From Escherichia coli (GTDB taxonomy: Bacteria > Pseudomonadota > Gammaproteobacteria > Enterobacterales > Enterobacteriaceae): a stretch of DNA of 64,000 nt. Below the pieces are notes generated by a model. It did no database searches, was not told the DNA's origin, and saw only the letters and a program-made list of their open reading frames with translations. Below are positions 23,297 to 23,651 of the stretch, in pieces. The position numbers were made by a program, and so were the translations under genes. The DNA is taken from the NCBI RefSeq assembly GCF_003790525.1, contig NZ_CP033635.1; one strand, written 5' to 3'. Position 1 is the stretch's first letter. Each line of letters opens with the position of its first letter.

Positions 23297-23330
23297 TCCC
23301 ATCTGCACAAGCGATAACTCGCTTTGCCCA

Positions 23331-23356
23331 GAGGATGCACTCGCATCCTCTTTCCG
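23331..23356 (+). terminator. Putative terminator after rnk
   Basis: gaggatgc-actc-gcatcctc hairpin followed by tttcc; weak U-tract. Confidence 0.4.
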
Positions 23357-23438
23357 CTCAAATATCAACCAGATTTATCATTTTGCTCTTAAGCGCAGCA
23401 TTCTAATCTGAACTGGTTATTCATCTGCGGAACCTCAT

Positions 23439-23528
23439 ATGAGCGAAGCTCTCGGTATCACTGCATTTTATATATTCATAGCAGCAATTATTGTTGCTGC
23501 AGTGCTATACCTTGAACAACGCTGGTAG
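23439..23528 (+). CDS. Hypothetical 29-codon hydrophobic ORF (MSEALGITAFYIFIAAIIVAAVLYLEQRW)
   Basis: ATG-initiated ORF with a single predicted TM helix in the rnk-uspG intergenic region; weak Shine-Dalgarno; not recognised as a known gene. Confidence 0.15.
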   Translation: MSEALGITAFYIFIAAIIVAAVLYLEQRW

Positions 23529-23651
23529 CGCCTGGTTTTATTTATTTTCCAGCTCAATAGCAAATTCAGATCAAATCAGCCTCGCAAATCATAGATTCAT
23601 AACCAATAATGTGCTGTTATGTATACATGCAAAAACAAGGAGAGAATGCTT

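Follow-up and report, generated by a model that had tools for sequence, protein, structure and literature searches.

What lies between rnk and uspG in an Escherichia coli genome that has no ybdR at this place, and how has this interval come to differ from that of K-12? In K-12, the slot is filled by ybdR (b0608), a zinc-dependent alcohol dehydrogenase-like gene. A sequence-only reading of a stretch of 64,000 nucleotides of E. coli DNA (hereafter the window) had noticed that this gene was missing, and that the gap contained a terminator-like hairpin and a hydrophobic ORF of 29 codons. It had proposed a strain-specific deletion or insertion polymorphism and had likened the encoded peptide to small membrane proteins or type I toxins. 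We report here the follow-up of these observations by comparative analysis of the locus.

Organization of the rnk-uspG interval

The end of rnk at 23296, the start of uspG at 23652 and the ATG-initiated ORF at 23439-23528, with its peptide MSEALGITAFYIFIAAIIVAAVLYLEQRW, were all confirmed from the gene calls. The gap between the rnk stop and the uspG start is 355 bp long (23297-23651). It is also correct that K-12 carries ybdR between uspG and rnk and that the present interval does not, as judged from the K-12 annotation and from a tblastn search in which K-12 YbdR found no match in this region of the window. No ybdR-like ORF is present there on either strand, and even with very permissive settings, searching the gap for a ybdR remnant gave nothing better than E~1. 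From rnk to uspG (22886-24080), the sequence is 100% identical to that of E. coli SMS-3-5 (NC_010498.1), with the same RefSeq coordinates, and the RefSeq gene order in SMS-3-5 is citT, rna, rnk, yldA, uspG, ahpF, ahpC. The K-12 order is rnk, yldA, ybdR on the opposite strand, and uspG. The features of the interval are listed below, where class I refers to one of two classes of yldA alleles and uspG leaders that are defined further on.

22886-23296, plus strand: rnk (regulator of nucleoside diphosphate kinase), left flank; CDS call, 99.3% nucleotide identity to K-12
23330-23351, plus strand: rnk 3' stem-loop, AGAGGATGC-ACTC-GCATCCTCT, then TT; folding and locus comparison
23358-23690, no strand: haplotype-specific segment, unalignable with K-12; alignment breakpoints
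23429-23431, plus strand: weak Shine-Dalgarno-like GGA, 7 nt 5' of the yldA ATG; sequence inspection
23439-23528, plus strand: yldA, class I allele, 29-aa single-pass small membrane protein, WP_001287361.1; ORF, RefSeq and NCBIfam
23529-23651, plus strand: yldA-uspG spacer with a class I-type uspG leader/promoter; terminator scan, folding and leader comparison
23652-24080, plus strand: uspG (universal stress protein G), right flank, mosaic relative to K-12; CDS call and K-12 alignment

Within the haplotype-specific segment at 23358-23690 are yldA with the sequence upstream of it, the leader/promoter of uspG and the ~36 nt with which uspG begins.

Two divergent versions of the locus in E. coli

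We surveyed 5426 complete E. coli genomes. The ybdR-less form, with the whole gap at 95% identity or more, was found in 1816 of them, and in other genomes the match with the gap did not go beyond its first 57-61 nt; the K-12 yldA-ybdR segment was found in 3605, and the two forms together account for 5421 genomes. The ybdR-less set includes strains that we take to belong to phylogroups B2 (Nissle 1917, ST131, ATCC 11775 and APEC O1) and F (SMS-3-5), and the ybdR-bearing set includes strains presumably of phylogroups A (K-12, H10407 and a BL21 derivative) and E (O157:H7). The ybdR-less arrangement is one of two common and deeply divergent versions of the locus, which occur in a ratio of about 1:2 in E. 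coli. The idea of a strain-specific polymorphism had thus to be abandoned, as the arrangement is shared by a third of these genomes and likewise by E. albertii, E. marmotae and other Escherichia.

The alignment to K-12 and other E. coli that the sequence-only reading had suggested as a check gave the endpoints of the difference. The rnk gene and its hairpin are about 99% identical to K-12, identity collapses just past the hairpin, after 23354-23358, and it returns about 36-40 nt inside uspG, where six differences from K-12 at 23657-23687 are all synonymous. Between these endpoints, ~330 bp that cannot be aligned with K-12 stand in place of a ~1.7-kb segment comprising yldA, ybdR and the 5' end of uspG. 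Even the yldA allele, present in both versions, shares with its K-12 counterpart only 48 of 87 nucleotides and 15 of 29 residues, and the corresponding pS of 0.80 is saturation. A simple deletion or insertion does not agree with this unalignable stretch, nor with the lack of any ybdR remnant. The difference is not a clean indel and the whole segment is replaced. We consider it likely that the gap carries the rnk hairpin, yldA and the uspG leader on a ybdR-less class I haplotype that is exchanged by homologous recombination. The crossovers would have taken place just past the rnk hairpin on one side and some 40 nt into uspG on the other; ybdR would then not have been deleted in the genome studied, the haplotype having been exchanged instead.

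The comparison with K-12 is uneven further along uspG, which is divergent at 23652-23687, 98% identical at 23695-23894 and about 85% identical at 23895-23994, with differences up to ~24020. On the other side of the locus, citT (20273-21736) shows 92.8% nucleotide identity between SMS-3-5 and K-12, and rna, rnk and ahpF show 98-99%. Because citT and the ~100-nt block in the 3' part of uspG stand out in this way against rna, rnk and ahpF, the neighbourhood is visibly a recombination mosaic that extends beyond the yldA/ybdR segment.

Distribution across genera and history of the two versions

The rnk neighbourhood was retrieved from 80 species-representative Enterobacteriaceae genomes. All four combinations of presence and absence of yldA and ybdR were found among the genera:

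Both genes: K-12, many Enterobacter, C. sedlakii
yldA only: the interval studied, E. albertii, some Lelliottia, Kosakonia and Phytobacter
ybdR only: Salmonella, some Enterobacter
Neither gene: Kluyvera, the C. freundii complex, some Kosakonia

Where the slot is filled by ybdR, as in K-12, Salmonella, Enterobacter, Leclercia, Silvania and C. sedlakii, the gene lies between yldA or rnk and uspG, on the opposite strand. It is missing from the slot in 54 of the 80 loci, including those of Kluyvera, Kosakonia, the C. freundii complex, several Lelliottia and all the non-coli Escherichia sampled. The slot is thus often without ybdR, irrespective of whether yldA is present.

Escherichia and Citrobacter loci could be sorted into two classes by their YldA sequence and their uspG leader. 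Class I YldA follows the pattern M.EA.GIT..Y..IAA..VAAV.[YF]LE, with a uspG leader ending in ...CAAGGAGAGA..GCTTATG, and comprises the interval studied, E. albertii and four Citrobacter loci (L008, L012, L014 and L024 in our set); every class I case sampled is without ybdR. Class II YldA follows the pattern ..E...IL.GF.[IV]MAAI, with a uspG leader ending in ...TTAACAGGGAGAAA.GG.TATG, and comprises K-12 and three Citrobacter loci (L018, L019 and L023). The uspG leaders of Salmonella and Enterobacter are of the class II type. Two genomes labelled Citrobacter amalonaticus carry different classes, namely class I in L014, which has an extra ~125 nt before uspG (4644-4889), and class II in L018, which has a ~160-nt insertion that duplicates the rnk hairpin (4466-4607).

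The names attached to the class I allele cluster include E. marmotae, E. albertii and unclassified Escherichia, and class I was also found in two further non-coli Escherichia lineages, one of them recorded as E. coli. In those Escherichia the gap is 87-94% identical to that of the window and the flanking genes are 84-97% identical. Class I is the sole version in the other Escherichia species sampled. On the other hand, the named members listed in the K-12 allele cluster are limited to E. coli and Shigella. The ybdR gene of K-12 has about 80-81% nucleotide identity to its Salmonella and Citrobacter counterparts, which equals that of the flanking genes, and our search for a donor of the K-12 ybdR haplotype found none closer than ~80% at the nucleotide level. 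At the protein level, the closest named YbdR outside E. coli is that of Salmonella (91% identity); matches at 94-96% are E. coli variants, of which the one inspected (P0060) carries an in-frame deletion. No paper linking ybdR with phylogroups was found in a literature search.

One hypothesis is that class I is ancestral in Escherichia and that class II, together with ybdR, has been imported by recombination from another enterobacterial lineage into what we take to be phylogroups A, B1 and E, plus Shigella. Supporting this idea, E. albertii, E. marmotae, the cryptic clades and roughly one in three E. coli carry class I, the divergence of class I tracks that of the flanking genes, and the named K-12 cluster members listed do not extend beyond E. 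coli and Shigella. Moreover, the YldA and uspG leader of K-12 are nearer to the types of Citrobacter amalonaticus/sedlakii, Salmonella and Enterobacter (22 of 29 YldA residues, against 15 of 29 with the allele studied here), and the mosaic neighbourhood, with citT at 92.8% and the uspG 3' block at ~85%, points in the same direction. However, no donor above ~80% nucleotide identity turned up in a sample that did not include E. fergusonii, and both classes occur within Citrobacter, which fits equally well with a long-lived trans-generic polymorphism or with an import of class I. A native class I with later entry of class II would be the most economical history, to which we give about an even chance.

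The 29-codon ORF corresponds to yldA

Several ORFs of 20-69 codons overlap the gap, and a 29-codon ORF within 355 bp is not above chance by its length alone. It is the comparative evidence, and not ORF length, that leads us to accept it as a real gene. The ORF is yldA, a gene already annotated: RefSeq places yldA ("small membrane protein YldA", WP_001287361.1) exactly on 23439-23528. The search of the peptide against small-protein families, proposed at the outset, retrieved the NCBIfam model NF041476 (membrane_YldA, equivalog) with 59.0 bits and an E value of 3.2e-16, aligned over residues 1-29 on the 29 positions of the model, the curated cut-off being 45 bits. Together with the RefSeq annotation, this match bears out the prediction of a small membrane protein with a single TM helix. 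By contrast, the Pfam model PF23689 (YldA-like) gives 22.9 bits to the present peptide, below its gathering threshold of 27, against 73.6 to the K-12 allele and 31.4 to an Enterobacter allele. This model appears to have been built around K-12-like sequences, and it misses the class I allele, which roughly one in three complete E. coli genomes carries, as do other Escherichia species.

A yldA-like ORF is present 3' of rnk in 35 of the 80 loci, in Escherichia, Citrobacter, Enterobacter, Lelliottia, Kosakonia, Phytobacter and Pseudenterobacter, among others, always with a length of exactly 29 codons and without frameshift. It starts ~140-150 nt past rnk in most of them and further away in three Citrobacter loci; the distance from the rnk stop is 142 nt here versus 137 nt in K-12. 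Across 32 yldA loci, the third codon position is the most variable (entropy 1.15 versus 0.64 and 0.47), the pooled pN/pS is 0.37 and that of the C-terminal half 0.27, and residues M1, E3, A21, V22, L25 and E26 are invariant. The conservation of the ORF, raised as a question by the first reading, could thus be established, and the non-coding sequence around it is far less conserved across the loci. The gene is single-copy, with a median of one place per genome in complete E. coli genomes. In K-12, an SPA-tagged YldA was detected by immunoblot (VanOrsdel et al. 2018, Table 1; PMC6001520), the gene having been named afterwards. Altogether, these comparisons indicate that yldA is protein-coding and under purifying selection.

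One could still wonder whether the ORF remains untranslated in the ybdR-less haplotype and is conserved as an RNA or DNA element, belonging to the rnk 3' UTR or to a uspG regulatory region. The Shine-Dalgarno sequence is indeed weak, no promoter was recognized before yldA, PF23689 scores the class I allele below threshold, and the expression evidence comes from the K-12 allele alone. Nevertheless, this possibility appears very improbable to us, since the conservation is codon-structured, with a most variable third position, the pN/pS given above and 29 codons kept in 35 loci, whereas the flanking non-coding sequence is much less conserved and the RNA folding of the region matches that of shuffled sequences. 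In addition, the K-12 orthologue is translated (PMC6001520).

The likeness to type I toxins, in which a membrane-damaging hydrophobic peptide is held in check by an antisense RNA, could be considered with regard to the shortness and hydrophobicity of the ORF and to its single TM helix. It could also be noted that the K-12 ybdR transcript convergently overlaps yldA (PMC12288877) and that the homologue YoaI delays growth when overexpressed (PMC11429745). However, type I toxins are patchy and multicopy, whereas yldA occurs once per genome, in conserved synteny 3' of rnk, in several genera. Consensus and Rfam scans detected no antisense promoter or terminator and no Rfam family on either strand, and the ybdR-less haplotype has no convergent gene. 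Besides, tagged K-12 YldA accumulates in normally growing cells, which tolerate it, and the only detectable relative of the protein, YoaI, is a signalling modulator and not a toxin. A toxin function thus finds no support here and seems to us hardly credible. In the yldA region, no Rfam match was above threshold; the only match, to a eukaryotic snoRNA model, scored 27 bits for a gathering score of 45 and was dismissed as a chance match.

The conservation of yldA also bears on the view that a recent, strain-specific deletion removed ybdR from a K-12-like ancestor and left a 355-bp scar with a fortuitous hydrophobic ORF. K-12 does hold ybdR at this site and genuine recent ybdR deletions do exist (an internal deletion in strain HH97, of K-12-type background, and an in-frame 51-nt variant), but these retain the K-12 yldA allele and the ybdR ends, neither of which is found here. 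Since, in addition, the gap is unalignable with K-12 past its first 61 nt, the same arrangement recurs at 95% identity or more in 1816 genomes and is found in three other Escherichia lineages, and the small ORF is conserved across genera, this reading is refuted and we regard it as extremely improbable. As a side observation, the deletion in HH97 (NZ_CP116409.1; locus L084, 3077-3421) leaves a ybdR fragment, and the annotated yldA ORF is extended to 46 aa; the in-frame 51-nt deletion (locus L085, 3001-4188) results in a YbdR of 395 aa.

The rnk stem-loop and the expression context of yldA

Folding supports the presence of a hairpin after rnk, with a stem of 9 bp (23330-23338 paired with 23343-23351), a loop of 4 nt, a free energy of -15.5 kcal/mol and a z score of -4.1. 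The description of this element as terminator-like could be kept for the hairpin itself and not for an intrinsic terminator, defined here as a GC-rich stem-loop followed by a U tract with at least 5 U in 8: only three U follow the stem, a tract too short for the hairpin at 23330-23351 to be called in the terminator scan. It is probably a weak terminator or a 3'-end element of rnk. A stem-loop of the form GAGGATGC-N3-5-GCATCCTC-TTT (23330-23353 in the window), usually followed by CCG, is present in about 65 of the 80 enterobacterial loci. Its stem is invariant in sequence and not just in pairing, its loop is free to vary, and it is kept whether or not yldA or ybdR comes next. With no more than three U it makes an odd terminator, and it may serve the rnk 3' end as a site of protein binding or RNA processing.

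A consensus scan of 23200-23750 revealed no sigma-70-like promoter before yldA, and no terminator was called in the same region. In folding, neither the region upstream of yldA nor the yldA-uspG spacer did better than shuffled sequences. A GGG or GGA is found in orthologous yldA loci at the place matching the weak Shine-Dalgarno sequence of the window. In the ybdR-less haplotype, rnk, yldA and uspG are all on the same strand. Since the spacer is devoid of terminator-like structure, read-through from yldA into uspG is possible and, the three genes being co-oriented with no terminator between yldA and uspG, rnk, yldA and uspG may be co-transcribed. In K-12, the ybdR-yldA pair is listed by ExcludonFinder as an overlapping convergent "excludon" (PMC12288877). 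The two haplotypes would thus differ in regulation, with a possible co-transcription here versus a convergent ybdR lying between the genes in K-12.

Significance of the locus

The feature is already known in its main components, an annotated yldA and a common presence/absence haplotype of ybdR; anyone comparing annotated E. coli genomes would see the difference in ybdR. Two modest additions that can be tested are the homology of YldA with YoaI, presented below, and the division of the locus into two classes. The rnk-uspG interval provides a clean two-state marker for E. coli (1816 versus 3605 genomes), with alleles that have diverged as much as between genera. It also offers a small example of haplotype replacement, or of long-lived polymorphism, that touches both a small-protein gene and the promoter of a stress gene. 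As for YldA, a protein of no known function acquires a statistically solid relation to YoaI, a protein of known mechanism.

Relationship of YldA to YoaI and possible function

For four YldA alleles, the second match in NCBIfam is the YoaI model (NF041475, equivalog), with E values from 4e-7 to 9e-5 and an alignment in register to the C terminus. The YldA studied here scores 30 bits (E 4e-7), below the cut-off of 45, and the reciprocal match of YoaI to the YldA model is weak. Shuffled YldA peptides, YohP and an AcrZ-like peptide gave no match to either model. We compared a profile of 18 YoaI orthologues, collected with phmmer, to a profile of 32 YldA sequences. The hhalign comparison gave a probability of 96.7%, an E value of 4.6e-10 and a score of 39 over 27 columns. 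With 200 column shuffles the score was 9.9 +/- 2.5 (maximum 24), and with shuffles restricted to the TM core it was 14.5 +/- 3.1 (maximum 24). As all the shuffles stay below 39, the likeness of the two proteins is not compositional. YldA is a distant homologue of YoaI, its only detectable relative, and, with a score below the YoaI cut-off, not an orthologue. Pfam contains no YoaI family and records no link between YldA and YoaI families, and our literature search found no paper linking the two proteins.

YoaI is a PhoB-regulated protein of 34 aa that binds and activates the sensor kinase EnvZ, and substitution E31A or E31Q abolishes the binding to EnvZ (Vellappan et al. 2025, PMC11429745). By homology with YoaI, the N terminus of YldA would probably be periplasmic and its E-Q-R-W tail cytoplasmic. 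Because of the homology with YoaI and of the invariance of E26 and V22, we tentatively propose by analogy that YldA uses the cytoplasm-proximal face of its helix to dock onto a larger membrane protein, which could plausibly be a sensor histidine kinase; we hold this to be a possibility of rather less than even likelihood. Should there be such a partner, nothing requires it to be EnvZ, or a kinase at all. A bolder and more doubtful proposal would be that YldA is a YoaI-type connector, binding a kinase via its juxtamembrane Glu, of which two ancient alleles diverging by ~50% are kept in E. coli. If true, the two major halves of the species, which from the named strains we take to be A/B1/E and B2/F, would be wired differently at a signalling node, and each allele would be tied to its own uspG leader and to a locus with or without ybdR.

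Regarding regulation, we found no PhoB box near yldA in the window, even with up to 3 mismatches, which argues against a regulation shared with YoaI. Upstream of yldA, Enterobacter and Lelliottia loci carry a perfect direct repeat resembling a PmrA/BasR box (YTTAAK-N5-YTTAAK, mostly CTTAATCCA[CG]GCTTAAT), which ends 25 nt before the ATG (30 nt in L041); the half-site is defined as in PMC3973317. The ten perfect boxes found in 1.36 Mb of loci all lie at this spot upstream of yldA (loci L026, L030, L035, L041, L042, L044, L045, L050, L056 and L057; at ~4507-4523 in L045). No such box was found near yldA in the window, nor in either E. coli haplotype. The repeat is too near the ATG for a canonical activated promoter. 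It is possible that its presence upstream of Enterobacter and Lelliottia yldA supports the connector idea.

A parallel can finally be drawn between the protein encoded here and its two closest counterparts. The K-12 YldA, MAEAFYILIGFLIMAAIIVMAVLYLENHS (YLDA_ECOLI, NF041476, PF23689), is encoded at the same position, has the same 29 aa with a single TM helix and shares the C-terminal motif AAIIV.AVLYLE, the differences lying in the limited identity described above and in the following gene, a same-strand uspG here versus a convergent ybdR in K-12, where the yldA stop codon ends 3 nt before that of ybdR. YoaI is also a single-pass small membrane protein, and residues 2-28 of YldA pair end-to-end with its residues 7-33. 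It forms a family separate from YldA and is found in a different genomic context (yeaK/yeaL versus rnk/uspG), its N terminus is 5 residues longer (MNDQM), and it has an invariant S26 where YldA has A21. In both proteins it is the cytoplasmic end of the helix that is most conserved, where the invariant S26, V27 and E31 of YoaI align with A21, V22 and E26 of YldA, all invariant as well.
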